Below, one piece after another: positions 4,575 through 24,490 of a DNA stretch of 32,000 bases. Numbering within the stretch: the stretch's first letter is position 1; each line of letters begins with the position of its first letter. The notes under the pieces were generated by a model, which made no database searches, was not told the DNA's origin, and saw only the letters and a program-made list of their open reading frames with translations. The stretch is from an archaeon (GTDB taxonomy: Archaea; Iainarchaeota; Iainarchaeia; Iainarchaeales; CSSED10-239): contig DAOOUC010000003.1 in NCBI GenBank assembly GCA_035390665.1, positions 91,056 to 123,055 on the forward strand, read 5' to 3'. Made by a program: the position numbers and the translations under genes.

Positions 4575-6716
4575 TTATCTAATATTAAATAATGGAGTAA
4601 ACTCTATTTGTTTTATTATTTCTGATTGTTTATAAACTATAAGATATCTTTGACCAGGACAGAATAATTTTACATTTGAAATATCTTCTAAATTCAACTG
4701 TTCTGGTATATAGATTAATTTATTTTTTGAGATTTTAAATTCTTTAATATCTTGCCCGAAAGTAAAACTATCACTTACAGATATTATTTCGCCAGGTTTT
4801 AAAGAATAAACAATATAATTTTGATCTGTTGGAAATCCTGGAGGCCTAAATAAATTTCCATCAGGAGTTAAATAATAAATATTTAAATCTGTTATATTTG
4901 AACTTATAGTAGAATATATAGTATATTCTTTATCTATTCTTAATGGATTATCTAATTCAAGACCATCACATACTGGACAATAGACAAGATTGAATAATGC
5001 ATTAGGAACTTGATTTGTATTATTATCAAAATCACTAGCTATGTCTCCTAAATTTGTAGCTTCTAAACTTAAATTATCTGTAATATAAGATAATTGAGAA
5101 TTTCCTAATGATTTTAAATAACAAGATTTTATATTTATGTTAGAAAAATTAATAGGAACGTGTTTAACTATCTCTAATTTTTTTGGAAGATAACTTCCAG
5201 AAGCAAGATATTTAATATTTATATCTCCAATTGTTGGATCTTCCCCTCCACAAGCTTCTGTTGTACAACTACAATTAACTGCAGTTATAGAATCAATATT
5301 GTCTTCATTTAATTCTGTTTTAATATTAATATTCCCACTTTTATTAAAAAGATAATCTACATTTATTGAACCAATACTTCCTGCAGTTCCAAAATAAGAT
5401 GGTTCTGTAGGATATGAAGAATTAAACCCCTTTTTTCCACTAACTGAATAATAATTAAAATCACCATTATTAATAAATTTGGTAATGTTTAAATCAGAGA
5501 TCAATCCTCCATTCCCTCCATATCCATCTGTTCCTCCTCCATCATGTGCATTATCTCCTCCATTACCGCCATTACCCGCAATAATATTCCACATAATAGA
5601 TCCATTATTTATTAAATCATTATTTCTTAATATTATTTTACCTGTAGAGCCGCCTATTCCTCCATCTGCATTATCATTACGACAATGATTAGCCCCCGCA
5701 TCTCCTCCATTACCACCATTACCACTATTTAATGTAATATAAAAATTAGAGTTATTTAATTTAATTTTTGATATATCAAATACTACACTTCCACTTATTG
5801 CTCCTGAACCCCCCGCTTTAGGATCTCCTGAACATCTTGGGCCGCCTCCTTCAGATGCACCACTACCGCCATCTCCTCCATTTCCTGAAATCAGTATTAA
5901 GTTTAATTCAGAATTATCTATTAATTCTAAATATTTTAAAATAAGATTAGAATCCCCCCCAGTCCCTCCATCTCCGCCAGCTTTACGAGGGCTATCCGTT
6001 TTTCCTGTAGATCCTTTCGCGCCATTTCCTCCAACCAAATTTATATTCATATTACTTGAATTTATTATACTATTAATATCTAATATTGATGGGCCACCAG
6101 GGGTTCCGACATATGGACCAGATGTTGTACTATCTGATCTATTATTTGGGGTTCTTGAAATTAAACTTAAATTTAAATCTGAATTAAAGCCTACAAATAA
6201 ATTTTTTAACTTTACTTTAATTCCGTGTGCCCTTCTATAGGCATCATTATCTGCCCAAGATCTTTCGGCTTCTAAAAATAACAATTTTGAATTTGTATTA
6301 TTTGATAAATAAATATCTGTATTTATATCTATTGTCGTTAATTGAACTACGTTGTCTAAATTATCTATATTAAAAGTTAAACTACCATTATTTTTTATTA
6401 AAATTTTATCTATGCCTGTAATTTTATAATTGCTTTTAGATTCATTTAATGTAATTGTATTATTTCCGACAATTTCTAAAATTGTGGTCTTATTATCACA
6501 ATAAGTAACATTTGGCAATTTAACGAAATTTAAATCAGTATTAGTTATCTGAGTAGGTATTCTTATAATATATTCCCCTTGTTGCCCTCCACTAACATCT
6601 TGAGTAACTCCCGAAATTGTTTGAAAACAATTTGTGGTTGCAAAAATAGAATGTAAAGATAATTGCACAAATATAAAAATAAAAACTAAATTTAAATATT
6701 TTATCTTCATTATCAT
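4575..6716 (-). CDS. Secreted glycine-rich repeat protein (713 aa), paralog of the 674-aa ORF
   Basis: Long ORF in AT-rich DNA. There is an ATG at 6716 and a second in-frame ATG at 6710; an AAGGT overlapping the upstream stop is better spaced for 6710. The N-terminus looks like a signal peptide: KIKYLNLVFIFIFVQLSLHSIFA|TTNC. Residues about 199-450 carry GNGG-anchored repeats. The C-terminal 215 aa or so align with the 674-aa ORF (GSYLPK, YCPxC, EYxIYS, FKxxKNKL, LFCxGQxY). The TAA stop at 4575..4577 lies only 2 nt from the next ATG. Confidence 0.9.
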   Translation of the reverse strand: MIMKIKYLNLVFIFIFVQLSLHSIFATTNCFQTISGVTQDVSGGQQGEYIIRIPTQITNTDLNFVKLPNVTYCDNKTTILEIVGNNTITLNESKSNYKITGIDKILIKNNGSLTFNIDNLDNVVQLTTIDINTDIYLSNNTNSKLLFLEAERSWADNDAYRRAHGIKVKLKNLFVGFNSDLNLSLISRTPNNRSDSTTSGPYVGTPGGPSILDINSIINSSNMNINLVGGNGAKGSTGKTDSPRKAGGDGGTGGDSNLILKYLELIDNSELNLILISGNGGDGGSGASEGGGPRCSGDPKAGGSGAISGSVVFDISKIKLNNSNFYITLNSGNGGNGGDAGANHCRNDNADGGIGGSTGKIILRNNDLINNGSIMWNIIAGNGGNGGDNAHDGGGTDGYGGNGGLISDLNITKFINNGDFNYYSVSGKKGFNSSYPTEPSYFGTAGSIGSINVDYLFNKSGNINIKTELNEDNIDSITAVNCSCTTEACGGEDPTIGDINIKYLASGSYLPKKLEIVKHVPINFSNINIKSCYLKSLGNSQLSYITDNLSLEATNLGDIASDFDNNTNQVPNALFNLVYCPVCDGLELDNPLRIDKEYTIYSTISSNITDLNIYYLTPDGNLFRPPGFPTDQNYIVYSLKPGEIISVSDSFTFGQDIKEFKISKNKLIYIPEQLNLEDISNVKLFCPGQRYLIVYKQSEIIKQIEFTPLFNIR
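5367..6122 (-). repeat. Protein-level tandem repeats (4-5 units of about 46-54 aa) anchored on GNGG[NDA]GG
   Basis: Anchors are LVGGNGAKGS (aa 229), ISGNGGDGGS (278), NSGNGGNGGD (332) and IAGNGGNGGD (381), with a degenerate SVSGKKG (427). Each unit has an Asn/Ile/Leu beta-strand-like stretch (LIDNSELNLILIS, LINNGSIMWNIIA), then GNGGxGG, a Gly/Asp/Ser/His/Pro loop and a second GGxGG. Locally G+C-enriched DNA (GGN codons) explains the Pro-rich antisense ORF at 5479..5688. Confidence 0.8.
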
Positions 6717-6721
6717 TTACC

Positions 6722-8221
6722 TTATTTGTATATTTTAAAAGGATAATATAAATTTACATCTGAATAATTCAAATCTATATTTTCATTTAATTTAAATTTA
6801 AATTGATACATTTTTATTATATCCAATATTTTACTACTATTAGGAGTTAAATTAAATATGAAAAAACCATTTTGAGTTGTTTGATTATTTATTGAAGAAT
6901 ATCTGTATTCTAAATAATTAATATCAAATAATCCAAAGTTATCTCCAATATATGTAAATTGAGGATTAATTGTTTGCCCTGAATTTGCTTTTTGAATATT
7001 ACCAAAAATTATTGGAGTCATGGTTTGATTTTGATCAGTAAGTAAATAATCCGAAATTTGTGCGGTTATATTTATGTAATTACAATTTTTTGTAAATTTA
7101 ATAATATTATTATTTTGTAATCCAATATTACTTGAATTTAAATCAATTATACCTGCCTCTGGTCTACTATATATCAAAGAACAAATTGCAGTATAATTTA
7201 ATCCAGAAGGCACTTCTATTGGCCCACAGGTATTAAGATAGATTCTACCTAAGTTTGTTGTGCTTAGTGCATTAAATGTTATTGTCTTTGGTAATTTGCC
7301 AATATATTCACTAAATTCTATTTCACAAATTGGTTCTTTAAAATCTATTGGTATGGTATTACTATAATTCATATTTGCATTATTTTGCCCATACACACAC
7401 AGATAACTATTATTTAAATCACAATTTAGACTATATTTTTGAGCACCACAGTTTAGTTTTATTTCTCCACTATTGTTTACATAACCAAAAATAATTCTTT
7501 TTGAATATACATTTAACGGAGTTATTGGAAGTGTCTGTGGTAGTGGGTTATCATCATAAATTCCCATTTGTTCTGATGTATAACATCCAGGAAAATAAAT
7601 AGCATATTCTTCAGAATAATAGTTTGCAGGCTCAATATAATTATTTGAATCTAAGTTAAATTTTCCTTGATTATAAATTTTAGCTTCAGAAAAATCTAAT
7701 GTAGCTATTTTCAAATAAGAATCTGCATAAGATTCCTCTGAATTTAAATAATCAATACATCTTTTGATTTCTGAATGACTTTTAAAATTAAATTCAGCTC
7801 CTGAATTAATAAAAATATTTGTTTTAATTTTTATGTCTACTTCATTTTTTAAAAAAATAGTTAATTTCTTATTATTAGATATAATAATAGAATTAAAATC
7901 AACTATATAAAATTTAGTCATTACATCCCAAACAGTTACTTGTGGAATAAAAGATATATTAGTATCTATATTTACATCTTGAGAAATAATTAAATTCGGT
8001 CTTAAATTATTTACAGATAAAGAATCTTCAGAGATTATATATTGACCTCCGGGTAATACACAATTATTTGTTCCAGAATCATAATTACAATATACTGTGT
8101 CTCCTAAAGTATTTTTTATTCCAGAAATTTCATAATTTTGCGCAAAAATTGTATTTTGAAAAAAAATTACAAAAATTAATAGTAAAGATGCCTTTACTAT
8201 ATTATTGTAATGTTTTTGCAT
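6722..8221 (-). CDS. Secreted Cys-containing protein (499 aa), unknown function; possibly a distant Gly-loop-less relative of the 713/674-aa family
   Basis: ATG at 8221 preceded by GGTGA. Signal-peptide-like N-terminus: MQKHYNNIVKASLLLIFVIFFQNTIFA|QNYE. Weak similarities to the Gly-rich paralogs: N-terminal ISGI, IIISNNKKLTIFLKN versus ILIKNNGSLTFNIDN, and GKLPKTITF versus GSYLPKKLEI. It also has NxG strand motifs (INSGAEFNF, IYNQGKFNL, VNNSGEIKL). The stop is 5 nt before the next gene. Confidence 0.85.
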   Translation of the reverse strand: MQKHYNNIVKASLLLIFVIFFQNTIFAQNYEISGIKNTLGDTVYCNYDSGTNNCVLPGGQYIISEDSLSVNNLRPNLIISQDVNIDTNISFIPQVTVWDVMTKFYIVDFNSIIISNNKKLTIFLKNEVDIKIKTNIFINSGAEFNFKSHSEIKRCIDYLNSEESYADSYLKIATLDFSEAKIYNQGKFNLDSNNYIEPANYYSEEYAIYFPGCYTSEQMGIYDDNPLPQTLPITPLNVYSKRIIFGYVNNSGEIKLNCGAQKYSLNCDLNNSYLCVYGQNNANMNYSNTIPIDFKEPICEIEFSEYIGKLPKTITFNALSTTNLGRIYLNTCGPIEVPSGLNYTAICSLIYSRPEAGIIDLNSSNIGLQNNNIIKFTKNCNYINITAQISDYLLTDQNQTMTPIIFGNIQKANSGQTINPQFTYIGDNFGLFDINYLEYRYSSINNQTTQNGFFIFNLTPNSSKILDIIKMYQFKFKLNENIDLNYSDVNLYYPFKIYK

Positions 8222-8393: not shown

Positions 8394-11300
8394 TTATTCT
8401 GTATTATTAAAGTTATTAATTATTAGCTCTTTTGTACCTATTGGCAAGTTTGTTTTTTCTTCTATCCATTGTATCTTTGTTGTGGATAAACTTTTAGAAA
8501 TACATGCATTTCCTTCTCTTACTTGATTAAACATATCAAATATTGAATAAATGTCAGAAACATTTGAAATTATAGGAAGACTTGTTTCTCCAGAGGTATA
8601 ATCTTTACCATAAAGTTTTGATAATTGATTATTTTCTAAATCTTGTATAGATAATCTTAAATTATCATAATCTGAATTTACTGGAAGATAGATCTTTGAT
8701 TCTAATAAATATTTAGGTGTTAATTCATAACCGTATTTGTTTCTAAACTTATCTGTAGTTATAGTGTGCCTTAAATATTCATTTCCAAAACCAAATATTG
8801 AAATATCATCTATTGTATTATCATATCCTGCATCCATATAATCTTTCCAATTAAAGATTGTCATATCCCAATCAAAAGAATCGCTTTCACTATATTTTAT
8901 TTTGTAACTAAAATTATTATCTTGTATATTATTTACTTTTGCAAATATATTTATTGGCCTTGATGGTGTAAAATTTAATGCAAGTTGTATTTTTTCTGTT
9001 GTACTATTCATAGATAAATCAAATAATACTCCTTTTGAATTTAATACGTCTTGCACTTGCCAATCAATAAGATGACTTGTAGGATAATTTGCAGAAATTT
9101 CTGCAATTCCAGAACAATCTTGACCTGGACAATTCGCTTTTTTATATAACTTTATAGTTCCACTTTCTCTTTGTATTACTGGTATTAATTCTGCATAATC
9201 ATAATTACCAACTATAGTTGAACCATATCCAATTCTGTGAGCTGTTACCTCGTCCTCTAATAATCCAAAGTCTCCATCCACTGGTATATAATAGAATAAA
9301 TTGTCTTTATCTATAGGAATGCTTTGAATCAATTGTAATTTTATAACTATGTCTGTTGTAAAATTAGAATTATAATTCTCTACTGTTAATTTATATTTTC
9401 CTACTTTTTTTGTAGGTGTTCCATCTTGATTTGTTTTTATTATTTCTAATGATTGTGAATGATTTGATTTTAGATAAGAATCTTGGAATGATTGGGTAAT
9501 ATTATGCGTTAAGAAATCATTATAGCTTTCTCTATAATCAGATAAAAGATCTTCTGAGATTCCATCATACATTAAATAAACATAATAATTATTGTCTTGT
9601 GGTTTATACCTTATACTATCTCCAATAAGTGTAAATATTGAATATAATGCTTGAACAGAATCACAATGAATTTTATTGAAATCATAATCTAAATTTGTAT
9701 CCATACATAAGCTGTTCCAATTTACTGATTCTTGCCCCCAATTATAAAGTACTTTTGGAATACTTTCTGGGCCAGATTTACAAGATTCTGTGTCTTTAAA
9801 ATTACAAGAACCTAATATGAATTGATCATTTCCACTTATTAATCCGCCTACTCCTAAACAGAAATTCCCTGTAAATCCATTATCACTTATAATGGTTTCG
9901 GGATCTTCTGGGATATAAGTCACTTGTACAATTAAATTTCTTGTTTCTTGTAATGTGTTATTATTTAAATTTAAATCAAAAGTTAATGACTTATTATATG
10001 TTTTATACCCTTCTGCATTTTGCATAAGATCAGTAAAGTTTCCATCAATAGTTATTGGAACAGGTGTATTTGATATTTCTGTAGGTAAATCAAAAGTCAT
10101 AGAAATTGGTAATGCATTAGGCATCTGGATTGTAGATAATGATATATTATAACTTTTGGTTTTATTTTTAAAAGTATATACTTTATTTAACTTACAATCA
10201 GAAATACTTTTACAAGGAATATTTATTTGTGATCCTTGAGTTGTTAATTCATAGGCTTTATTTTTTGGATATATTATTATTTTTAATGGAATTTCATAAT
10301 TAAAAGATTCATTAGGATTTCCTATTTTTATTTGTAGATTTATATTTTTTTCTGTAATTTGGTTTATTTGATTGTCTATTAAAGTAAAAATAAAATTAAT
10401 ATTTCCTACAACTTTATTTGATTCAGAAATAACTGTATTTGCTTGACTAAAACTTATAATGTTAGTCAAATCATCTCCGGTTGTTGAAATTTCTAAAATT
10501 TGGTAATTTTGTGAATTATCAAAAGATAAATCTAAATAATATTCTAAAGTTCTATTTGTAGAAATATCTGTAATTAATTCTAGTCCTGATCCATTACTAT
10601 CAGTATAAAAACCGTTATCTTCTGTTATAAACATAGATTCGTCAGTTAATACTATTCTTTTAATTTTTATATTGGAAGATGCAACTCTGTATATTGTTGT
10701 TGGCTCTTGGTTCCCTTGATTTTGCAAAGTAAAAAGATTATTATATTCAAAATCTATATTTGTGTCTGTTGTATTAATGTCTATTAAAGCACTTGCTAAA
10801 ATGTCTGTATCTGCTATAAGTGTTCTAGGCAATTGATTATCTAATATTAATTTTTGATTAATCTCTTCTGTTAATAATCCGTTGACAGCTGTTGTTGAAA
10901 TATCTTCAAGTATTGTTGATCTGCCGGTTTTATTTTTTATTATGTAATTGTTGTTTGTTTCAGATATTTTCTTTATTCCATTTAATTCAGTTATAATTAC
11001 TGGGAATTTTAATTTATTTTCATTAGTTATCAATTGATTATTTGTATCATAAAGATCGATTCCTGACCCGATATTTAAAGACAATTCTAATTCGTTGTTT
11101 GGAAGATTGGAATTTGGAATTGTATATATAAATTTGATTGTTTTTCCTGAATCTGCATCTGCAATAAATATTTGAGTATTTAAATAATTATTTGTAATTT
11201 CTCCAATATCTGTTGGAACGGTTTCTCCAGAAATTATATATCTTACGGATATTCCATTTTGGAATTGCCCGGTTTTGTTTTTTAAACTAATGTTTAAATC

Positions 11301-14300
11301 ATTTAAACCAATGTATATTTTATTATCTGTTGCTTGAGATTTAACTTCAGGAACATAATCGTTTTGTGCATAGGATAAAATATTTGTTGTAGTTGTTTCA
11401 AGTATTGAATTTTGAGCATTTCTAAATAATTGAGTTTTAATACTTGGTTGAGCAGCTAATGAAAAGAAATCAATTGGTTTTCCTATAGCTTGATTAGTAA
11501 AATAATATCCTCTTGTGGTTGTTTTTTCTGGAATAATTACAGATAAATTATTATCCAATAATTGAATTTGTGCAGTATTATTTATTTTGTCTTTAAAACT
11601 ATTTTTAGAAAATAAATACTTTTCGTTTGTATTTGCAGTATTTACAATTATATCTCCGGTTCTATTCGTTTCTCCGAATTGAATAAAATCAAAACTATAA
11701 TTGTAATCTTTATCTATATAAAGAATATAGTCTGATCCAAATTTTTCTAATTCTCCATTATTATCATATAATTTAATATTATAAGAATAATTATTACTAT
11801 CAAATGGAATTGATTGAGAAGTGGTAGATGCGTAGAAATAACCTTCTGGTCTTATTGTCCAATCTTGCCAATTTGAAACTGTTGGAGAAAAGGAGAAAGA
11901 TTCTAAATCTGAATTAATGGATCTATAATAAATTTTATAATTATCTGGATTTGTTATTTCGTTTTTAAATTTTATATTTATTGAATATTCAATAATATTT
12001 GGTTCGATATCACTAAAATCAAACTCTGTCCATTTATATTTTCCTGAAACACATTGATTGCCGGATACATCAGAAGAATAATTAGTATTAAAGTAATTAT
12101 TATCCCAATGATTTAAGGTTCCACTATATCTGCAACCCGTATTAAGTTCTGTATTTTCTGGAACAAATAAATTTGTATTAACTAAATATATATAATCGTC
12201 ATTTTGAGTTAAATATTGCCCTGCTTTTACAAAAACTTTCTTTAAAACATCTTGATTACTTGAACCAAAAACGGTTTTGAACTTTAATTTATATTCTTTT
12301 GTAATATCGTTATTGCCAATAAAACCAATTTTATTTATTTTTATTGTTCCAGTGGAATCATATAATCCTAAATATTCTGTTGTTGTTTGAATAGAAGACA
12401 ATGTTGTAGGAAAAGAAATTTCTTTGTTAGTTGTTTGTCCAGGAAATAATGTTATTAAATCTGTTTGATAAATAATATCATCTTTTTTAGTCTTTAAATA
12501 AATACGGGAACAATTTTCACAATTAAAAACAAATGTTTTATTTGAATCTCCTGGGGCACTTGCAATAATTATATTTTCTTTAGATATTTCTTCTCCAGTT
12601 ATATCAAAGAAGGAGAAATTATAATCATTCTGATTTGGTGTGATTTTTAGATTTAATGCTCTTGCTTGATTCCCTAAATTAATATTTAATTCTAATACTT
12701 CATTATTATCTAATTCCAAAGATGGCAATGAATCTCCGTCTGCGTTTTCATTCCTTAGTATAGCATAAGCATAATATTCTTTATTACTTCTTACTAAATT
12801 AAAATTAACATCTCCATTTAGATTTGTAGTTCTTGGGCTTTCTGGATTATATGCTATATATTCTCCATCTAGTTCATAAAATAAATAAACCAAAGCATTT
12901 GCTCTATTGTATTCGTCTTTTTTTACATTTACTTTTATTGTTCCACTATTTAATGCAGAAGAATATTCCAATGGTATTTCAATTGTTTTATTTCCGTCAG
13001 ATAATCCGTTTATATCTTGGGGATTTGACGAAATATAGCCACTATCTTCTGTATTAGAAACAACAATTCTGTAATTTTTATTTCTTATTAAAACAAAAGT
13101 TGTTTGATTAATATCTATTCTTGTGCCTATTAATGTAGAAATATTGCCATCTCTTCTATAGATTGAAATATTTCCAATAACTGGTTGATTTGTATTTTGG
13201 TCTTTTAATTTAATTGTAAGATTACTTAATTGTCCTACAATACATCCATTTCCATTTGGATTTGGAGTAACAATTCCAGATAATAATGGACTTGCACAAT
13301 TAATACTTCCATTACTACAAAATGCACTATATATTGGATTAGTACAATTAATATTTTCTAAATCTTCTGCAGTAAAAATAATTAAATCAGCATTTGCTAA
13401 ATTATCATTAACAACTGTATATGGCCCAAACTTAGGCAAAGTAATATATCCTATTTTATCTACTGAAATTAAATAATTTGATTGAGCTAATTTAAATTTA
13501 TATTTACCATATGTGTCTGTTGTCCCAGTACTAATTGCCATTTCAGATTCATTAACAGTAGTTATAGGGTCATCAATTGCATAAACCTTTAAATTTGTAT
13601 TTGGTATTGCAACCCCGTTTGAATTTTTCACCGTTACTTCTAAGGTTCCTGTATTTGAATTTATTTTTTTCATTTCAACTATATTGCTTTCAGGGATTTC
13701 TCTATCTGTAATTAATTCATAATTATTTGAAACAACACTTACTAATAATTGACCACAATTTTTAGGTTGAATAACATTTTGTCTTCCATTTGTTACTGTT
13801 GCGGTTTTGGGTTGTGGAACATCTAAATCTGTAGAACATTTAAAGGTAGCATTTAAAACATCATTAATTAGTACATCATAATTTTTAAAAATTATTTCTC
13901 TTCTCTTTTCTGAATTTTGACCAGGGTATTCAAATTTTTTAGGATCAAGTCTTAGTTTAATTGTTTGCTCTATATATTTTTGATTTAAATTTATTGTTGA
14001 TTCAAATCTTAAATAATTTTCTTTAGTTATTGTTAATTCAAGTTTTCTAGATTTTAATTCTTGAAATTCAATATATCCGAAAGCATCTGTATTTTTTGTT
14101 TCTTCCTGCCCATTATAATTTATTTTAACAACTGCATCTTTTAAGGATAAACCTTGTTCGTCAGTAACATATATAGCTAATGATTTTGACGAAGGGCCAG
14201 ATACTAGAACGATTATAATTATTATTAAAATTACTGCTACACCAATTAAAGGGATTTTAAATTTATTAAATAAAGATTTAAAATCTGGTTTTGATTTTGA

Positions 14301-14369
14301 ATTTACGGGCTTATTTTTAGAATCATCAACTTTTTGTTTAATTTCTTCCAGTATTTTATTTTGATCCAT
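8394..14369 (-). CDS. Giant N-terminally membrane-anchored surface protein (1991 aa) with beta-sandwich domain array and family-specific C-terminal region
   Basis: ATG at 14369 with AGGA 6 nt upstream. Lys-rich 38-aa N-terminus, then the TM helix IPLIGVAVILIIIIIVLVSG (about 14196..14255). There are at least 4 CarboxypepD_reg-like segments, e.g. IYVTDEQGLSLKDAVVKINYNGQEETKNTDAFGYIEFQEL and VTVKNSNGVAIPNTNLKVYAI...TTDTYGKYKFKL. A 4-Cys knot reads NINCTNPIYSAFCSNGSINCASP...GCIVGQ. The C-terminal 490 aa or so are shared with the other giants. Confidence 0.92.
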   Translation of the reverse strand: MDQNKILEEIKQKVDDSKNKPVNSKSKPDFKSLFNKFKIPLIGVAVILIIIIIVLVSGPSSKSLAIYVTDEQGLSLKDAVVKINYNGQEETKNTDAFGYIEFQELKSRKLELTITKENYLRFESTINLNQKYIEQTIKLRLDPKKFEYPGQNSEKRREIIFKNYDVLINDVLNATFKCSTDLDVPQPKTATVTNGRQNVIQPKNCGQLLVSVVSNNYELITDREIPESNIVEMKKINSNTGTLEVTVKNSNGVAIPNTNLKVYAIDDPITTVNESEMAISTGTTDTYGKYKFKLAQSNYLISVDKIGYITLPKFGPYTVVNDNLANADLIIFTAEDLENINCTNPIYSAFCSNGSINCASPLLSGIVTPNPNGNGCIVGQLSNLTIKLKDQNTNQPVIGNISIYRRDGNISTLIGTRIDINQTTFVLIRNKNYRIVVSNTEDSGYISSNPQDINGLSDGNKTIEIPLEYSSALNSGTIKVNVKKDEYNRANALVYLFYELDGEYIAYNPESPRTTNLNGDVNFNLVRSNKEYYAYAILRNENADGDSLPSLELDNNEVLELNINLGNQARALNLKITPNQNDYNFSFFDITGEEISKENIIIASAPGDSNKTFVFNCENCSRIYLKTKKDDIIYQTDLITLFPGQTTNKEISFPTTLSSIQTTTEYLGLYDSTGTIKINKIGFIGNNDITKEYKLKFKTVFGSSNQDVLKKVFVKAGQYLTQNDDYIYLVNTNLFVPENTELNTGCRYSGTLNHWDNNYFNTNYSSDVSGNQCVSGKYKWTEFDFSDIEPNIIEYSINIKFKNEITNPDNYKIYYRSINSDLESFSFSPTVSNWQDWTIRPEGYFYASTTSQSIPFDSNNYSYNIKLYDNNGELEKFGSDYILYIDKDYNYSFDFIQFGETNRTGDIIVNTANTNEKYLFSKNSFKDKINNTAQIQLLDNNLSVIIPEKTTTRGYYFTNQAIGKPIDFFSLAAQPSIKTQLFRNAQNSILETTTTNILSYAQNDYVPEVKSQATDNKIYIGLNDLNISLKNKTGQFQNGISVRYIISGETVPTDIGEITNNYLNTQIFIADADSGKTIKFIYTIPNSNLPNNELELSLNIGSGIDLYDTNNQLITNENKLKFPVIITELNGIKKISETNNNYIIKNKTGRSTILEDISTTAVNGLLTEEINQKLILDNQLPRTLIADTDILASALIDINTTDTNIDFEYNNLFTLQNQGNQEPTTIYRVASSNIKIKRIVLTDESMFITEDNGFYTDSNGSGLELITDISTNRTLEYYLDLSFDNSQNYQILEISTTGDDLTNIISFSQANTVISESNKVVGNINFIFTLIDNQINQITEKNINLQIKIGNPNESFNYEIPLKIIIYPKNKAYELTTQGSQINIPCKSISDCKLNKVYTFKNKTKSYNISLSTIQMPNALPISMTFDLPTEISNTPVPITIDGNFTDLMQNAEGYKTYNKSLTFDLNLNNNTLQETRNLIVQVTYIPEDPETIISDNGFTGNFCLGVGGLISGNDQFILGSCNFKDTESCKSGPESIPKVLYNWGQESVNWNSLCMDTNLDYDFNKIHCDSVQALYSIFTLIGDSIRYKPQDNNYYVYLMYDGISEDLLSDYRESYNDFLTHNITQSFQDSYLKSNHSQSLEIIKTNQDGTPTKKVGKYKLTVENYNSNFTTDIVIKLQLIQSIPIDKDNLFYYIPVDGDFGLLEDEVTAHRIGYGSTIVGNYDYAELIPVIQRESGTIKLYKKANCPGQDCSGIAEISANYPTSHLIDWQVQDVLNSKGVLFDLSMNSTTEKIQLALNFTPSRPINIFAKVNNIQDNNFSYKIKYSESDSFDWDMTIFNWKDYMDAGYDNTIDDISIFGFGNEYLRHTITTDKFRNKYGYELTPKYLLESKIYLPVNSDYDNLRLSIQDLENNQLSKLYGKDYTSGETSLPIISNVSDIYSIFDMFNQVREGNACISKSLSTTKIQWIEEKTNLPIGTKELIINNFNNTE

Positions 14370-14383
14370 AGGTTTTCCTATTT

Positions 14384-16408
14384 TTAATTATTAAATAATT
14401 CTCTTAAAGGAACAAAAGGAAACTCAAATTCTTTAGAGTTATTCCCAATAGTTATTTTTCCTTTCAATATATATTCTTGACCATAACAGAAAAGATATTC
14501 ATCTTCTGCTAAATCATTTCTATCTTCATCTTGTGATGATCCAAACCACACAAGTTTATTTTTTTCTAATTTAAACTCTCTCATTCCTATTTTATCATTC
14601 ATTTCTGAAGAAATTTCTTCTTTATTTGTATAAATTGGTTGTAAGGTATTATCTATTCTTTTAGTATAATATATTTGATTTGTTACTGGATTAAAATAAA
14701 ATATTTTTAAATCTCCAGGAAGTATTTTCCCATTAACATTTGAATAAATATTATATTCTCTTGTATATCTATTAACTTCGTCAGTAAGATCTATAACTTC
14801 ACAATGAGGACAATATCTATAATTAACTGACGTTCCGGCAGGTAAGAAAGAATTTATGCTTTCAATATTTGTTGCATAAATATTTGTTCCTCCATTTAGA
14901 TTATAAGTTACTTGACTTGGTTGAATATAACAACCAGATAAATCTATAGAGTTATTAAAAATTGGGTGTTCTGGTTCTGATTTAATATTTATAGATTTTG
15001 GAAGATAAGATCCATTCTTTAAATTATTAATATTAACATTAGTAACGGTTATTCCTAAATCTAATAATTTACGCATATACCCTGTATCCCCCGATTCGCC
15101 CCCATCATCGGTATTATTATTTGCTTGGGCCGTTGCAGCTAACTGATAATCTGCTAAACTAAAATTTAATTGAGATATAATTTCTATTCCAGGATATGTA
15201 TTTTCTAAAAAATTAATATCTATATTTCCTAAAGTTCCTGGAAATCCAAAAGGTTTATCTAATTCGTGATTAGTACAGGTTCCATCAGCAACATTTCGTT
15301 TTCCTAATTCTCCTGATTTTAAATTAAGTTTAAAATTAGGGGACCTATTAATTAATGTTGTTATATTTAAATCCGAAACATCTCCGCCATTACCACTATC
15401 TCCATGGTAATCGTGTTCTCCATCATTACCCTCGCCCCAATCACAATCATTATCCCCCGCAAATCTGCTTGTTCCTGCCCAGCCACCATTTCCTGCAATT
15501 GCTTGCATGGAGAAATCTCCTTGATTTTTTATTAATTTTATTTCATTTATATTTATATTTCCTGCATGCCCTCCATTCCCACCATTAAATGAATCGTCTG
15601 CAGAATCATCTTTAGGAGAATGACTTCCATTTCCGCCATTTCCTGTTTTTAAGATTATATTCAAATTATTATTATTCTCGATATTCTGAATTCTAAGATT
15701 TAAATTTCCAGAAGATCCTCCTGGTCTTCCGTGTCTTTCTTCTGCATCATCTTCGCTATGTGGTTGTCCGCCTTTTCCTCCATTTCCGGTTCCTAATTCA
15801 ACAATTGAATTCCCAAAATTTATAAAATTTTTAAATGAAATTATTAAATCGCCTGAAGATATCCCGTCTGTTCCATCGTCTCCTTCACTATCTCCATCTG
15901 TTCCATTTTTTCCATCATTTGTTTTTATTTTTATTTCCAATTTAGAATTAGGTTTTACTGTAATATCTTTAGTTATAAAATTTATTTTAATTGAACTACT
16001 TGAAAATGATTCAGATAAATTTTTAATTTTTGCATCTGAATTTGATTCAACTATTATGTTTGAAAGATTAATATCTAAACTTTTTGAATTATCTATCACT
16101 ATATTAGAAGAACCAGATATCACTAAATTCCAATTAGTATCATTCATATTTAAATTTTCTTTAACCCAAATTGTTTTTGCATTTAAGTTTAAATTGATTG
16201 CATAGTCTTCACAACCGGATAAATTAAATAATTTAGATGTGCTTGATTCTAATGGTGTTGTATTAACATTACATTCACAGATTTTAGTTGTGTTATCACA
16301 AGAATTACAAGTTATTCCATTTACAATTCCAGAAATAGCACAAGCAAATATTGGATTTACAAATATAATAAATGTTATTAAAAGTATAAATATTTTTACA
16401 TATTTCAT
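14384..16408 (-). CDS. Secreted (possibly lipid-anchored) glycine-rich repeat protein (674 aa), paralog of the 713-aa ORF
   Basis: ATG at 16408. The N-terminus MKYVKIFILLITFIIFVNPIFA|CAISG has the same IFA cleavage context as its neighbours. I-F-A-C could alternatively be a weak lipobox. A Cys-rich stretch follows (CNSCDNTTKICEC). Residues about 163-445 are GNGG repeats with Asp/Glu/His-rich loops. The C-terminal 215 aa or so are homologous to the 713-aa ORF, including YCPHC. Confidence 0.9.
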   Translation of the reverse strand: MKYVKIFILLITFIIFVNPIFACAISGIVNGITCNSCDNTTKICECNVNTTPLESSTSKLFNLSGCEDYAINLNLNAKTIWVKENLNMNDTNWNLVISGSSNIVIDNSKSLDINLSNIIVESNSDAKIKNLSESFSSSSIKINFITKDITVKPNSKLEIKIKTNDGKNGTDGDSEGDDGTDGISSGDLIISFKNFINFGNSIVELGTGNGGKGGQPHSEDDAEERHGRPGGSSGNLNLRIQNIENNNNLNIILKTGNGGNGSHSPKDDSADDSFNGGNGGHAGNININEIKLIKNQGDFSMQAIAGNGGWAGTSRFAGDNDCDWGEGNDGEHDYHGDSGNGGDVSDLNITTLINRSPNFKLNLKSGELGKRNVADGTCTNHELDKPFGFPGTLGNIDINFLENTYPGIEIISQLNFSLADYQLAATAQANNNTDDGGESGDTGYMRKLLDLGITVTNVNINNLKNGSYLPKSINIKSEPEHPIFNNSIDLSGCYIQPSQVTYNLNGGTNIYATNIESINSFLPAGTSVNYRYCPHCEVIDLTDEVNRYTREYNIYSNVNGKILPGDLKIFYFNPVTNQIYYTKRIDNTLQPIYTNKEEISSEMNDKIGMREFKLEKNKLVWFGSSQDEDRNDLAEDEYLFCYGQEYILKGKITIGNNSKEFEFPFVPLRELFNN
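15074..15922 (-). repeat. Protein-level tandem repeats (about 5 units of 42-60 aa) anchored on GNGGxG, with acidic/His-rich loops
   Basis: Anchors are KTNDGKNGTDG (aa 166), GTGNGGKGG (208), KTGNGGNGS (256) and IAGNGGWAG (306), with a degenerate KSGELGK (about 366). Loop examples: QPHSEDDAEERHGRPGGSSG, SHSPKDDSADDSFNGGNGGHAG, TSRFAGDNDCDWGEGNDGEHDYHGDSGNGGD. The antisense ORF at 15355..15588 is the shadow of this region. Confidence 0.8.
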
Positions 16409-16844: not shown

Positions 16845-19800
16845 TTAATTAATTCCTGTTATTCCAATCCCTGTGTATATGTTATTATTTCCATAGATTA
16901 CTTTTGGATTCCAATAGAATTCTGTAGTCTTTCCACTATCAGAATTAACAACACAAATTTGGTTGGTTTTCACTTTCTCAAAGATGTTTGTTAAATTATC
17001 TGTATTATAATTTTCGCCATTACTTAAAAGATTCTTGGTATAACTGTCGTTTGGATTTTTATTATCTTTATTAAATTTAACAATTACATCTCCTCTTGAT
17101 TTACTTGTTAATTTATAGATGCTATTATGTGAATCATAAGGAACATAAAATATTGTTCTTAAGTTTACTATTCCTTTTCTTGCAACAGTATCCCAATCTA
17201 TTGCATAAGAATTATACATTCTTTCATCAGGTGTTGTTTGTCTATCATAGAAATTTATAAATCTAGAATATACATATTCTCCTGAGAAATCATAATAGTT
17301 ACTATCTCCAACTCCATTCCATACTCCTAAACTAGTGCCACCATATAATGGTTGATTTGATGGATCCGTTATTTGATAGTATGCACTAAATGGCATTAAA
17401 TTTGTTCTTGTTACGCTCATTAATGTTGCATTTGGATAGTTTGGAGAATAGATTAATTGAATCTGATCTTCTGTTTGTTCTTTTATTGTAAGTATGTTAC
17501 CTCTTGTTTCTACATTGCTGTTTATTTTAAAGAAATCTTTATTATATTGTACATTTAAATATTTCTTTGGATTTGATGAACTACTATATTTTGTAGTTAA
17601 AGGCAATTCTCCTTGTTTACTTATTGTTATTTCATCACCCATATATGCTAAACCATAATTTTGTCTGGAATATCCATTGTTTGTTAAACCTACTGCACCA
17701 TTAAATGGCATTCTGTAGAAAATACTATCGCTTTCTGGTCCAGAGATATATGTTAAAGTTACTGTTGTATTAACATCTAAATCATCTGCTCTTATAAAAT
17801 CCCAGTGCTCATTTCCAAATATAAAATCAATTCTTACTTTATATTTTCCTGGAACTAAAATGTTTACACCTGATTGATTATTTGTATATTTTAAATTAAA
17901 TTCTGTGTTATCTCTAAACAATTTTGAATATATCCCATTTTGATAATAACTTGGAGCACCTAAGAAAGCATAAGTACTTGATTGTCCAGCAGACATTTTT
18001 CCACCATAAGCTTTATCAAAGTCTGTTTGGAATTGTTTATTATAATTGTCTGTGATTAGATATGCGTCAAACTCTATTGTTTGTTTTAATTGTTGTATGT
18101 CTTCTATATTCCATTCACTAATGACATTATTTGGATATTGTTCTTTATTAAACCACATATCTATGTAGTCTACTCCATTAAATTGAGCGGTTGTTATTGG
18201 AACTTGACAAGGACCTCCTGTTGGTTGTGCCTGGTGCACACTTAAATTAATATCTGTTGTGTAATATGTTTGATTTGGATCTTCTAAATAAGTATTTGCT
18301 CCAGAATATTCAACTTCTAACTTAATATTGTTTCCTATTAGAGGGTTTGCTTGTTCACCATAAGTAAACCAATACTCTGCTGTATTTTCATTTTCACAAG
18401 CTGGAACTGTTGTGTTTAATATTGGATTGATTGTATTTATTCCAATCACTGTTCCTTCAGTGTGTTGTCTTTCAGTTGTACAATTATCATTTGGAAGTAA
18501 TTCTGTATATGATTTTAATATTTGATTTCCTAATTTTAGATTTAATGTTCCTGTTTTTAAAGAACCTGTTCTATTTTCTATAACTACTCCAATCTTTACT
18601 AAATTACCATCTGTTCTTGCACTTACATTTTGTAAACCAATGTAACCTGCAGGAATTTCATTATCTAGATTTGGAACACTTGAAGTTAAATTATATGATC
18701 CAGACAATGCTTGATCAAGAACTTGCCCTGTACTTCTTGGACAAATTATTTCTTTATTTTCTAATTGATCTTCTACTTTTTTCATTCTTTCAATAATTAC
18801 TTGAGACAATTGTGTAGCATCACAATATTGATTACCTGTGCTACAAACATTTGTATCAAAACCTGTTGTTTTCCATGTCCAATCAAGATTTACTTTTGGC
18901 ACAGCTCCCTCTCCAGTTTTACCAACCTTCCCTGAATCTGTAAAACAATCAACCATATTCTGGTCAACTTGTGGGCTATCAGGATATTGTTTAGAGATAA
19001 ATGCAAATCTGAAATCTCCAATAGGTTGTGAACCAACAAAGGCTTTGTCTTGTGAACCATTATTATCATTTAAAGTTGGTTTGAAAGTAATATTCTTATA
19101 AACAATATCTCCTCTTAGAAGTTTTTGATATGTGCTATTGCCATCTATTGAATAATCAACAACGAAATCAATAGGTTTAATACCTGCTTGTTCTGGCCAT
19201 ATTGCTTTATCGTATTTACAAGAAGTATATACTTCAAATTCTAAATTTATTTTATTTCTTGTTGGTTTACTACCATAACATTGAACTCCTGCAATTATTT
19301 GATCTTCAGTTACTTCATATTTATCAAATTTATCATTACAGTTTTCGTTTTTTACTATTCTTTTATATTCATCAAAGAATTCTTGGTGTTGTTTTCCACC
19401 ACATTTTGGCATTTCTGTATCTAACATTTCATCTGATGTTAATTTATTTGTTTTATCGTTATCAGTTTTACCTATTAATTTCAAATAAGTAAAATATCTT
19501 GCACCAGTAATATCAAACACATTTACAAATTCTTCTTGATCCCCATCTGATATAATTTTAATTTCTTTTGTAGTTTCAAAGTCAGGCATCGTGTAAATTT
19601 GAGAAACATCTAAAACATGATAATGAGGATTAAATGAATAATCATTATGCCAGGTTGATGCCATCCATCCACCAATTGCTATAACACCAATTGCAGCCCA
19701 ACCCCATGGTCCAATTGCTGCTAATACCGTGTACAAAGGACCTAAAAATGCTCCACCTGCATATGTACCTGCAACAGATCCAAATACCATTGCCATTGTT

Positions 19801-22800
19801 AAACTACTAGTCCCTGCAGCTAATGCTCCGCCAATTATTGCTGTTGTTGCTAATGATGCTGCAACAGTAGATGCTGTATTCCACCATTCTGCTCCATCAT
19901 CGGTTTGATTTGTTAATTCATTTGGGAGACTAAATAACATTTTTTCAAAATATGGACGTTCTTCTGAAGTTACCATAAATCTTGAAAAGCCTGTGTCGCC
20001 TTCAACTTTTTGAACAGCATAGTCCCAAGGTGTAACATTTATATCGCTGTTTAATAGTCTTACAGTCTGACTTGAATATATTTCTGTTCCAATTTCATTT
20101 TGTGTCTTTTCCATTTCTATAAATGGATCTTCCATGTATAATCCTGAAGAAGAATGTACGTTTACTTTTAATCTCTTTTCAATATTAACTATTGCCCTTC
20201 CCGTGTCTCCAAGAACAGATATCTTTACAGGTATAATATATGCTCCTGGTACTTCTGGCTTTATTATTCCAACAACTTGTGTTGTGTCTCCTCTATTAAA
20301 GTTTATTTCGTTCTGTAGAAGACCTTCCATGTTGTCGTATCTTACTTTTTGACAACCATACCATTTCTTACCTTCACAGAATTCTAATTTAAATCTTCCA
20401 AGATCTGAACAATTATTCTTAACATTTAGTTCTTTTATTTCGCCTTCAAAAGTTTCTTTAGGTACTACTAACATGTTGTTAATCTTTTTTGAACCATCAT
20501 AGAAGTCAATACAGTCTTGTATCTTTCTTATTGCAATGTCTGTTGTAAATGCTATTTCTTTTGAAGTATTTACATATTTTAAACCATCGTTAGTTTCTAC
20601 TTGTCCATTAATATAAATCTTTGTCTTAACATCTCCAAACTTTTTATCAAGAGCTCTATATTCAATTATTGCTGCGTGTGGTCCTGGAGATAAATCATTA
20701 AAGATTGTGGTATATGCTCCTTCTGAAAGAGTTATTGATTTACCATCAACTGTTAAAATATAATTACCATACATGTCTTTATCATTAACAATTTTTGCTC
20801 TTATGTTCTTTAAGTTTATTGATTCTTCAGAATTTCCCTTTACTCTACAGTTGTTTGTTATTGTAAATGTTTGAATAACTGCACTATTACCACTAACAAT
20901 AGATTGCCATGGATTACTTACTCCATTAACAACCAAACAATCATCTTCTTCTACTCCTTCGCCAACTGATAACTTAACATTCATTGGTATCTCAAATGGA
21001 TAAGTAGTTTGACTTTCACCAACTAAAACATTACCTGTAATTGTCCCAACAAGATTTAAAGTTTCAACAAGATTTTCTGCATCTTGAGATGCTGCTAGTT
21101 TTAATTTAATATCTGCTTCTCCATTTGCTGGAACAACAATGTTACCAACTTGAGAATTTAAATAATTCTTTAATTGTTCAATATTTAAATAATTAGAATT
21201 ACTAAAACTAAAGCCATCGTCTGTAAATTCCTTTAATGTTAATGGATAATCTGTTTTATTAACAATTGTTAATCTTTTCTCTGTACCTTGTGGATTTGAT
21301 TTATTAATATTTAAAATAAATGGCGATGCGGGTTTTACTTCACTACCATCTTGCTTTAAACTTAAAATGTCTTGATTAATAACTATTTCTACTGGTGCTG
21401 AATAATATCCACTTTTTTCTACAGAAATTATTATTTTTTCTGCATTCTTTAATGGAGGTAAATTTATAGAAGCAACACCAATGTCGTTTGTTCGTTGTTG
21501 TCCAACATTTAGTGCAATTAATTGATTGTTTCCTTTTTTCTGATAGATGTTAACAATTGCATTAGTTATTGGTTGATTAGAATTGTCCATTGCAATTACT
21601 TTTAATGTAAATGCTTTATTTGGCACAATATTTTGTGGTTCGTAAGTAATTGTAAAAGGAAATTGTTGACTTGCAGTTATTTCTATCATCTTATTATAAG
21701 CAACTAATTGACCAGAAATTATTTTATTTTGTATTCTTGTTCCTCCAAGTAATACTGGTTTAATTGTGGTATTAACATAAATTTTATCATAAACATTAAT
21801 TGTTTGAGAATCTAAATAATCCCCATAGAAAGGAATACTATTTCTTGTCTGTTCTCCACTACTTGATGAAGAACTAAATCCTGCTCCTGAAATTGTGTAA
21901 TTTAAGAAATTAATTGCTTGTGTTGGTATTTCGTTATTATTTTCAATATTCTTTATTGTTAATCTATTATTATAGAATACATTAGATTTAGCATTTGTTA
22001 TTTCATAATTAAATTGATATGTTTTATTTACAATCAATCCATTATTTGTTTCATCTAAATCATAAGCAATTCCATCCTCTGTATCTACAAACTGACCTTT
22101 TATACAGAAGTCTTCTGAACATAATTCACTTACATCAATATAATAGATTTTTTGATTACCAAGGGTGTTTGGTTCTGGTGCAACCCCAGTATAAATTGAG
22201 TAATATATTGGAATAGCTGCCCCTCTTGTAGCCGCAAGAGTTTGCACAGGTATAGTTAATTCATAAACTCCTGCCTGCACATTTGAAAACATTGTATCTG
22301 TCATCTTTGTTGGAGAATCTTGTAATACTCTTGTTGGTAAAGTGTCTGAATAATATGCTGTGTTAGCTATTGAATTAAGTATTGGTTTAATTAATACAAT
22401 ATCTTCAGTAATATTATTTTTTTCTCCAATTAAAAACCTAATTCCGAGATTTCCTGGATTTGGTGTGATTAATCTAAACTTAAAATTAAATCTTGCATTT
22501 TGTGTAAAATTTTCTGTTGATTGTTCTGAAATATTATATAATCCAATTAATTCTGCTGTTGGAGTTGTTGCATATCCAGATCTATATAATTTTATTTCTT
22601 TATTTAATGTTTCATTCTTAATTACAGGCATTAATTCTGTAAAATAATCATAATATCCTGTTTTGCTTATTTTAGCATAAACTATTTTATCTGCTTTTAT
22701 TTTTTTATTATAAATTCCTGATTGATTTGCTTGATCAAGTCCTATTTCTTCTCCAGTGATATTATATAATCTAATGTCTGCAAAATCTATTGTTTCATTA

Positions 22801-24458: not shown

Positions 24459-24490
24459 AAAGAAAAAGAAGATGAGCAGAAAAGCTCATC
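24459..24490 (-). terminator. Intrinsic-terminator-like hairpin plus T-tract after the 442-aa gene
   Basis: The minus strand reads GATGAGC-TTTTCT-GCTCATC, a perfect 7-bp stem with four G:C pairs and a 6-nt loop (24490..24471). It is immediately followed by TTCTTTTTCTTT. The TGA stop (24486..24488) sits in the 5' arm. This is the only G:C-containing perfect inverted repeat I found in an intergenic position. Confidence 0.6.

Follow-up and report, generated by a model that had tools for sequence, protein, structure and literature searches.

The locus and its giant proteins

The window analysed here is the final 32 kb of a 123-kb contig (C3:91056-123055) in an Iainarchaeota assembly of 0.85 Mb, 21 contigs, and 28% G+C. 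Relatives of its proteins are found in Candidatus Iainarchaeum/Diapherotrites metagenome-assembled genomes of this DPANN phylum. Every gene in the window lies on the minus strand and, as transcribed, the order is GC, S4, GB, S3, GA, S2, S1, and G0 (Table 1). We use GA for a giant protein of 1991 amino acids (aa), GB for one of 2514 aa, GC for a giant with repeat modules, and G0 for the giant at the left edge. An earlier note on this DNA had proposed that GA, GB, and GC share a C-terminal region. In this study, we analysed that region, hereafter the module. We found that the three C-termini, together with that of G0 and those of three further proteins of the same genome (K975, K2563, and K1657), are copies of one ancient domain. 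The limits previously set for the module proved correct to within ~45 nucleotides of the profile boundaries.

Homology of the C-terminal modules

Direct BLASTP among the three C-termini gave no significant match (best E 0.11), so the motif strings by which the region had been recognised are insufficient on their own. The relationship emerges transitively. The paralog K975, encoded on contig C11, acts as a bridge, since BLASTP links it to GB (2e-28), G0 (7e-9), and GA (4e-3). Moreover, the C-termini of GA and G0 match dozens of external GB-like or K975-like proteins with E values of 1e-5 to 3e-10 (best value for GA, 7e-9). GC, for its part, groups with two proteins of the same genome, K2563 (1e-63) and K1657 (8e-12). 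A hidden Markov model (HMM) built from four sequences (G0, GA, GB, and K975) failed to detect GC. We therefore attach more weight to a leave-out profile of 106 modules, all from other genomes, which was searched against the 1050 open reading frames (ORFs) of this genome. This profile matched GB (1.2e-122), K975 (1.3e-120), GA (3.8e-14), G0 (3.4e-13), K2563 (2e-7), and GC (1.1e-6), and no other ORF fell below E 0.01. Two collinear domains were matched in GC, covering residues 1545-1584 (motif a) and 2005-2054 (motif d); GA was likewise matched in two collinear pieces, motif a and the C-terminal part.

The absence of any relationship between profiles had been named beforehand as a possible refutation of the shared region. 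Profile-profile comparison revealed a significant relationship instead (probabilities of 96-98%). Using hhalign, we set a profile of seven GC-type modules against one of 69 GA/GB/K975-type modules. The global alignment reached a probability of 97.9% (E 3.8e-12, 498 columns), and local alignments in both directions reached 87-88%; one of the two matches spanned motif a, and the second spanned the C-terminal half. With the 108-sequence alignment (A2), the reciprocal local comparison gave 95.9% (E 5e-9, 293 columns), and the E values of all local matches range from 5e-9 to 4e-6. The reversed profile and eight column-shuffled profiles used as controls failed (P >= 0.13). In the reciprocal direction, a GC-type HMM matched motif a in 42 g1-type modules from other genomes with E values of 1e-5 to 1e-10, a few of them also at motif d.

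It could be argued that the likeness of GC to GA and GB is convergent or compositional, in a low-GC proteome rich in Asn, Ile, and Lys, and reflects no common descent. The failures of BLASTP and of the four-sequence HMM fit this explanation, as does an identity of only ~15% between GC-type and GA/GB-type modules. However, a profile made entirely from foreign genomes matches both ends of GC collinearly, the hhalign result disappears in reversed and shuffled controls, the GC-type HMM finds foreign modules in return, and four core cysteines stand in register. Convergence of GC is hence extremely improbable. Judged on these sequence comparisons, the homology of the GA and GB modules can be considered virtually assured, and that of the GC module to them very nearly so.

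Profile alignment also placed the four motifs on which the earlier note relied. Motifs a and d are present in all three giants. Motif b stands for GA and GB; the string read in GC, ITIFTDNNFTKIN, is not what the profiles align at that place. Motif c was said to occur in two of the three only, but GC also carries a degenerate form of it (MLFTNPINAYY...FNYTG). The suggestion that the left-edge giant be checked for the same region was a fruitful one: G0 carries the module just downstream of the window.

Table 1. Positions of genes, modules, motifs, and related features. Positions refer to the window unless a contig (C3, C7, C11) is given.
Feature	Position	Strand	Remarks
GC	25833..32000	-	cut by contig end; full protein 2254 aa (P0070), signal peptide
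S4	24486..25814	-	442-aa secreted protein
GB	16845..24389	-	2514 aa
S3	14384..16408	-	
GA	8394..14369	-	1991 aa
S2	6722..8221	-	
S1	4575..6716	-	
G0, N-terminal 1524 residues	1..4572	-	full protein 2142 aa, extends beyond window
GA module	8397..9827	-	residues 1515-1991; short form without insert
GB module	16848..18965	-	residues 1809-2514; long form with ~200-aa insert
GC module	25836..27452	-	residues 1517-2055 of the window-truncated frame; divergent subtype
G0 module	C3:89202-90716, just outside window	-	residues 1638-2142
Motif a, GA	9645..9761	-	PKV.Y.W ... C ... HCD..Q; two invariant Cys and invariant W, D, Q
Motif a, GB	18804..18902	-	VPKVNLDW ... YCDATQ
Motif a, GC	27285..27365	-	LLLKWNES ... 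YCDQDQLK
Motif d, GA	8454..8558	-	helix, Cys strand, W.xxK at extreme end
Motif d, GB	16902..17003	-	TDNLTNIFEKV...C...EFYWNPK
Motif d, GC	25854..25955	-	LQNINSVFNN...C...SLWYNPEK
Variable insert in GB module	18117..18743	-	~residues 1883-2091; low pLDDT
Gly/Ala/Trp-rich hydrophobic segment of GB	19650..19886	-	residues 1502-1580, ~80 residues, ~230 residues upstream of module
K1657	C7:20814-25787	+	secreted, 1657 aa; GC-type module internal, residues 281-787, then YkuD
Second giant island (K2563, K1822, K975)	C11:3659-19821	+	

Architecture of the giants

Outside the module, the architectures had been described as different. This is true of GC, whereas GA and GB have their N-terminal ~650 residues in common (E 4e-12), and GA is a paralog of G0 over its full length, with 32% identity over 2008 residues. 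Across GA, G0, and GB, the common N-terminal part spans ~500-650 residues (E 2e-19 to 4e-12). It begins with a short cytoplasmic stretch followed by one transmembrane helix, according to topology prediction. The bodies of these three proteins contain Pfam β-sandwich domains of the CarboxypepD_reg, SpaA, SdrD_B, and Big_1 types; those above the Pfam cut-off are CarboxypepD_reg, SpaA, and SdrD_B in GB and CarboxypepD_reg in GA. No repeated Ig-like or prealbumin-like stalk domains were detected by Pfam in GC. Within the GC body (27500..30400, minus strand), residues 543-691, 970-1046, 1148-1301, and 1326 onward align to one ~170-residue unit of K2563 (NF[KR]ENG.DARVCF ... C.SRP). In K2563 this unit lies immediately upstream of the module and occurs as a single copy, and in GC it is multiplied. 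As for the start of GB, the listed one is a GTG (24378..24389, minus strand) giving 2514 aa; the database entry for the identical protein, P0003, is 2510 aa long, suggesting that gene callers used the ATG four codons downstream (MSFSEK...).

Anatomy of the module

The module spans 480-700 residues, ~450 of which form the core. The core starts with a Cys-W-Cys-[YH]CD..Q element that leads into a helix, and continues with an acidic helical region (DG.S.DF..DF). Its body is β-rich and is marked by the motifs PG.Y.V.I, FYY.P.DG.VG...RQGYG, RG.LL, SPS.ATPV, and L.T.FYTP; a final helix, a Cys-containing strand, and WNPK close it. Across 108 sequences, the invariant residues are W37, C48, C62, D63, Q66, D95, D104, G150, R205, Y208, and G209 in the numbering of the GA module, and many aromatic, Gly, and Pro positions are near-invariant.

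An insert placed after the first helix ranges in length from 0 to ~250 residues over the family. The GA module is a compact form of 477 residues and, like that of G0, lacks the insert. GB and K975 carry one of ~200 residues, and GC has a different, partly helical region at this position. In the AlphaFold2 model of the GA module (predicted local distance difference test, pLDDT, 72.5; predicted template modelling score, pTM, 0.81), a small N-terminal β element and three helices are followed by a long β-rich body, a terminal helix, and two strands. The GB model (pLDDT 66.9, pTM 0.64) has a confident core and a poorly defined insert. The insert is also far more variable in sequence than the core. 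At three levels of divergence among GB orthologs, identity amounts to 0.81, 0.59, and 0.44 in the module core, 0.78, 0.56, and 0.36 in the stalk, and 0.67, 0.39, and 0.23 in the insert, with a minimum of 0.13-0.15 in GB residues 1951-2000. The core is thus slightly more conserved than the stalk at all three levels. A conserved core joined to a variable insert is the pattern that a constant scaffold with a variable surface would leave.

Four alignment columns of the core (15, 82, 104, and 1058) hold Cys in 98-100% of the 108 sequences, including GA and GB, and profile alignment indicates that GC retains all four (the first, the two of motif a, and that of motif d). GA has neither of the cysteines that flank the insert (columns 147 and 432), co-variation links column 285 with 316 (phi 0.70) and column 374 with 386 (phi 0.98), and K1657 has lost both cysteines of motif a while keeping the first and last of the module. 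From this paired loss we infer the pairing. Disulfides would staple the module by joining the first Cys to the last, the two of motif a to each other, and a pair at the base of the insert. The first of these bonds would link the N-terminal end of the module to its C-terminal end.

The YCDATQ string of GB invites the idea of a catalytic cysteine. We rejected it, as there is no conserved His and both motif-a cysteines are lost together in K1657. A papain-like or transglutaminase-type enzyme was discarded on the same grounds: no His is invariant or near-invariant in the 108 sequences, and the K1657 module is otherwise intact without the motif-a cysteines.

Searches against known families and structures

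Pfam and NCBIfam returned nothing above curated cut-offs for the module in GA, GB, GC, 30 aligned members, or the relatives of GC. A profile search of the PDB gave best E values of 0.013 and 0.29, both to unrelated proteins. Foldseek searches of the PDB and BFVD were equally negative, with best E values of 0.011 for the GB model, 0.13 for the GA model (PDB), and 0.14 (BFVD), and template modelling scores of at most 0.15 over the query. The weak matches obtained (immunoglobulin (Ig) domains, CBM21, NPC2, and RhoGDI) would point to β-sandwich sub-structures only; those that recurred are small, non-catalytic sandwiches resembling Ig domains or carbohydrate-binding modules (CBMs). The module therefore belongs to no named family and no solved fold in Pfam, NCBIfam, the PDB, or BFVD. 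The earlier note had recognised no catalytic motif, an impression that all these searches bear out, and the common, well-known domain that it had named as a second possible refutation was not found in any of them. Regarding the giants as a whole, Pfam detected no recognised adhesive or ligand-binding domain in them, and no HemolysinCabind or related repeats-in-toxin (RTX) match. A C-terminal sorting domain, either the C-terminal domain (CTD) of type IX secretion system (T9SS) substrates or a PGF-CTERM signal for archaeosortase, was considered and set aside: the module has 450-700 residues, no C-terminal transmembrane segment, and no Pfam match.

Distribution and position in the protein

A pattern scan that took one genome for each GTDB species yielded 238 module-encoding stretches. 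Almost all of the best 68 loci come under the names Iainarchaeum, Diapherotrites, or "archaeon", and a few carry other labels. Of 201 genomes sampled from the phylum, 179 carry the module, as do 55 of the 58 that are of high quality, usually with 4-10 matches per genome. Nearly all genomes of the window's order carry it, including every family with more than two sampled genomes, and none of 19 genomes from five families of the sister orders does. The module is specific to one order of Iainarchaeota and is a hallmark of that order. The full-length GC-type subtype is restricted to genera g1 and g2 of the window's own family, f1. Searching 1.84 billion cluster representatives exhaustively with the profile retrieved 882 at E <= 1e-3 and 560 at E <= 1e-30.

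The module sits at the very end of its proteins. Over 147 representatives, the median length of the tail that follows it is 7 aa and the longest tail is 36 aa; after WNPK, the tails are ~19 aa in GA, ~18 aa in GB, and 6 aa in GC. Of 100 full-length giants, 96 have an N-terminal transmembrane segment. Carriers from other genomes are proteins of 2300-2700 aa encoded in co-directional arrays of two or three. The thirty full-length orthologs of GB measure 2392-3126 aa, mostly 2466-2525 aa. The present genome encodes seven module proteins, which total 14,096 residues and take up ~5% of the assembly. Two of them depart from the C-terminal rule, namely K1657, in which the module is internal, and K2563, in which a GC-type module is followed by a 150-aa tail rich in Thr and Gln.

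Paralogs and neighbouring genes

K1657 carries, C-terminal to its module, a YkuD L,D-transpeptidase domain (PF03734, E 6e-17). Three genomes of the genus encode this fusion of module and YkuD in one ORF, and none of them has another YkuD; among control genomes, the YkuD family gave matches only in bacteria. A peptidoglycan enzyme in an archaeon that lacks murein hints at bacterial targets. Other regions of K1657 resemble NlpC/P60 and lytic-transglycosylase motifs by eye and have no Pfam match.

On the second giant island, K975 (~975 aa) consists of a signal peptide, a Gly-rich segment, and the module. It equals the last third of GB and has 37 relatives; the K975 family is a stand-alone form of the module. 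We considered whether K1822 and K975 are simply a split GB and downgraded the idea, as K1822 ends in Cys-rich repeats of its own and an S4-like domain, and its frame crosses a 100-N assembly gap within Cys-rich CTPAC.DT.ECVNG repeats. Residues 260-330 of S4 (24825..25037, minus strand), in the Cys-rich C-terminal part of this protein, are 42% identical (E 1e-10) to the extreme C-terminus of K1822. They represent a second, smaller module common to a small secreted protein and a giant.

Concerning the other small genes of the window, S1 (4575..6716) and S3 (14384..16408), both on the minus strand, encode paralogous Gly-rich proteins with GNGGxGG repeats (E 1e-23 to 1e-31). We rejected S1-S4 as conserved partners of the giants, given that no homologs lie within 10 kb of module genes at the 68 loci found elsewhere in Iainarchaeota; these proteins were added to the island in this lineage only. 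Immediately beyond the left edge of the window, G0 is directly followed by two small ORFs of 148 and 115 aa (C3:88446-89236, minus strand). The 115-aa ORF (C3:88446-88793) is homologous (E 8e-10) to a ~124-aa polytopic membrane protein located 3' of giant arrays at 45 of the 68 foreign loci, and small polytopic membrane proteins follow such arrays at 25-45 of these loci. The presence of this homolog after G0 makes the array in the window the syntenic equivalent of the foreign giant arrays.

Topology and the upstream hydrophobic segment

In the middle of its otherwise extracellular chain, GB contains a Gly/Ala/Trp-rich hydrophobic segment upstream of its module. Of 100 full-length relatives, 55 have an equivalent segment 100-300 residues before the module, in many cases strongly hydrophobic (Kyte-Doolittle values up to 3.5); GA, G0, and GC are devoid of it. 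In many relatives, motifs with conserved Cys enclose it, C.W..A upstream and DPC downstream, and the flanks on either side are acidic. No other part of the GB sequence varies as much (identity 0.05-0.28). The segment is probably a second membrane anchor of hairpin type with both ends outside. On this reading, the module of such proteins would be extracellular yet tethered near the membrane.

These observations bear on the proposal, built on N-terminal anchoring, that the module occupies a membrane-distal tip. The anchors themselves are predicted for GA and GB, each with its transmembrane helix, but GC has a signal peptide and no anchor. The distal position is not established. It is possible for GA, doubtful for GB because of the hairpin, and undefined for GC.

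Function of the module

We tentatively favour, at somewhat less than an even chance, that the module is an extracellular binding head stapled by disulfides, in which the variable insert determines specificity and the target may be a bacterial envelope. The module would be exposed to the outside, as suggested by the Sec-type N-terminal anchors or signal peptides and by the acidic flanks of the second hydrophobic segment where present. It would serve the giant envelope proteins as a shared binding head. The conserved core would act as scaffold, and the hypervariable insert, together with loops, would contact an external ligand. This ligand would most likely be a component of the envelope of a partner cell, and may be the bacterial wall, because K1657 joins the module to the peptidoglycan-acting YkuD domain. 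In wall enzymes, the non-catalytic partner is usually a targeting domain, and by analogy the K1657 module may be one. A binding role is hence plausible in the light of both the scaffold with its hypervariable insert and the YkuD fusion.

Several observations weigh against a binding head. The constant C-terminal position, near-universality in the order, and fixed ortholog length look more like a housekeeping structural or assembly domain than like an adhesin tip that evolves fast. In particular, the narrow length range of the GB orthologs argues for a defined structural role and not for a repeat-variable adhesin. In over half of the family, a hydrophobic hairpin a short way upstream may keep the module close to the membrane of the cell itself. 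The YkuD fusion is limited to the divergent subtype and to one genus. Finally, the disulfide map is drawn from co-loss in a few sequences and not from coordinates, and Cys column 887, occupied in 95% of members, is Tyr in GA and GB and has no obvious partner.

A second explanation is that the module is a self-assembly or docking domain. The giants would oligomerise through it, or dock on a shared partner such as the small membrane proteins, and build a coat or canopy of fixed height. A common module on paralogs with differing bodies would be expected in this case, as would its invariant place at the extreme C-terminus, its near-universal occurrence in the order at 4-10 copies per genome, and the tight conservation of ortholog length. 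The slightly stronger constraint on the core than on the stalk, the hydrophobic hairpin close to the module, and the conserved small polytopic membrane proteins that follow arrays at 25-45 of 68 loci (here C3:88446-88793) point in the same direction. However, a hypervariable insert is hard to explain for a pure assembly interface, and so is the YkuD fusion, in which the module is internal to a secreted, enzyme-bearing protein. We consider this explanation rather unlikely.

A bolder form of the binding hypothesis, which we judge clearly unlikely, would make the module a new fold and the contact head of a previously undescribed, order-wide cell-contact apparatus for binding bacterial cell walls. 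Giants with two membrane anchors would form this apparatus together with the small polytopic membrane proteins; recognition of the target would fall to the variable insert, and YkuD or other wall-active enzymes would be delivered with it. If this were true, Iainarchaeales would be epibionts or predators of bacteria and not of other archaea.

We find it improbable that the module is a new enzyme domain, a hydrolase or lyase acting on envelope polymers of a partner, with the invariant Asp, Asp, Gln, Arg, and Tyr as active site. Invariant polar residues do exist across the 108 sequences (D63, Q66, D95, D104, R205, and Y208), and the module is joined to a cell-wall enzyme domain in K1657. On the other hand, it shows no likeness to any catalytic family or fold, it has no invariant His, Ser, Glu, or Lys, and the motif-a cysteines are dispensable in K1657. 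Moreover, the fold is rich in β-sandwiches, and its only weak Foldseek matches are the non-catalytic Ig/CBM-like domains. Most improbable of the functional proposals is a folding-assist or sorting role without any function at the mature surface, as C-terminal intramolecular chaperone or export/quality-control tag for long Sec substrates, an analogy drawn from the chaperone domains known at the C-termini of phage fibres and the CTD known in T9SS substrates: the strictly C-terminal position would suit it, but 450-700 residues with a variable insert far exceed known tags, the K975 family stands alone and the K1657 module is internal, and Pfam and NCBIfam revealed no autoproteolytic or sorting motif.

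Significance and comparison with known systems

Iainarchaeota are uncultured DPANN archaea with genomes of ~1 Mb that may be free-living or may depend on a partner, and they devote ~5% of their DNA to giant envelope proteins. The module is the only element shared by all their giant envelope proteins, and it is therefore the best single handle on the apparatus that these proteins form. Two compact forms, GA residues 1515-1991 and the ~975-aa proteins of the K975 family, are small enough to be expressed, used for structure determination, and screened for binding to cells that co-occur with these archaea. A family model is deserved, with ~900 sequence clusters each holding ~500 unannotated residues, and the module profile, which marks a whole archaeal order, is useful for binning and annotation. 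New here are the membership of the GC type, the leave-out test, the order-level distribution, and the map of cysteine co-loss, as well as the variable insert, the upstream hairpin, and the YkuD fusion with its internal module.

Among known systems, the wall-binding modules LysM, SH3b, and PG_binding, which accompany YkuD or NlpC/P60 domains, resemble the K1657 module in position, as the latter sits N-terminal to YkuD, the usual place of a targeting domain. They differ from it in that there is no homology, in size (45-70 residues against ~500), and in that the analogy concerns one paralog subtype of one genus. The SPEARE giant proteins of Nanohaloarchaeota (Hamm et al. 2019) reportedly contain protease, adhesion, and restriction-endonuclease-like domains. 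They likewise occur at the surface of a DPANN lineage and have a proposed role in contact with another cell; however, none of those domains was detected by Pfam in the proteins described here, and there is no sequence relation.

The bacterial fibrillar adhesins, including the giant RTX proteins LapA, SiiE, and MpIBP, are similar in three respects. They are of giant size, the stalks of GA and GB belong to the same Pfam families (CarboxypepD_reg, SpaA, SdrD_B, and Big_1), and a globular, non-repeat domain is placed at the far end of the chain. The differences are equally clear. Adhesins are held by LPXTG or by a type I secretion system (T1SS) retention module, whereas the archaeal giants have an N-terminal transmembrane helix and often a second hairpin. 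Unlike RTX adhesins, they lack RTX repeats and belong to an archaeon with Sec-type N-terminal anchors. Their terminal module is unrelated in sequence and fold to known adhesive domains, and their ortholog lengths are fixed and not repeat-variable.

A further parallel comes from Ca. Forterrea, a DPANN/Diapherotrites archaeon. In the searchable literature we found no description of the module, and the only relevant text mentions large membrane-anchored proteins in this organism. The Ca. Forterrea paper contains no domain analysis and describes no C-terminal module (PMC5905446), and we did not find the module in the sampled sister orders of the class. It does report a cluster of giant, N-terminally anchored proteins that occupies ~5% of a small genome, and its authors propose that these proteins function in cell-cell interaction (PMC5905446). 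Giant proteins anchored at the N-terminus and amounting to ~5% of a small DPANN genome are thus a trait that Ca. Forterrea shares with the archaeon studied here.

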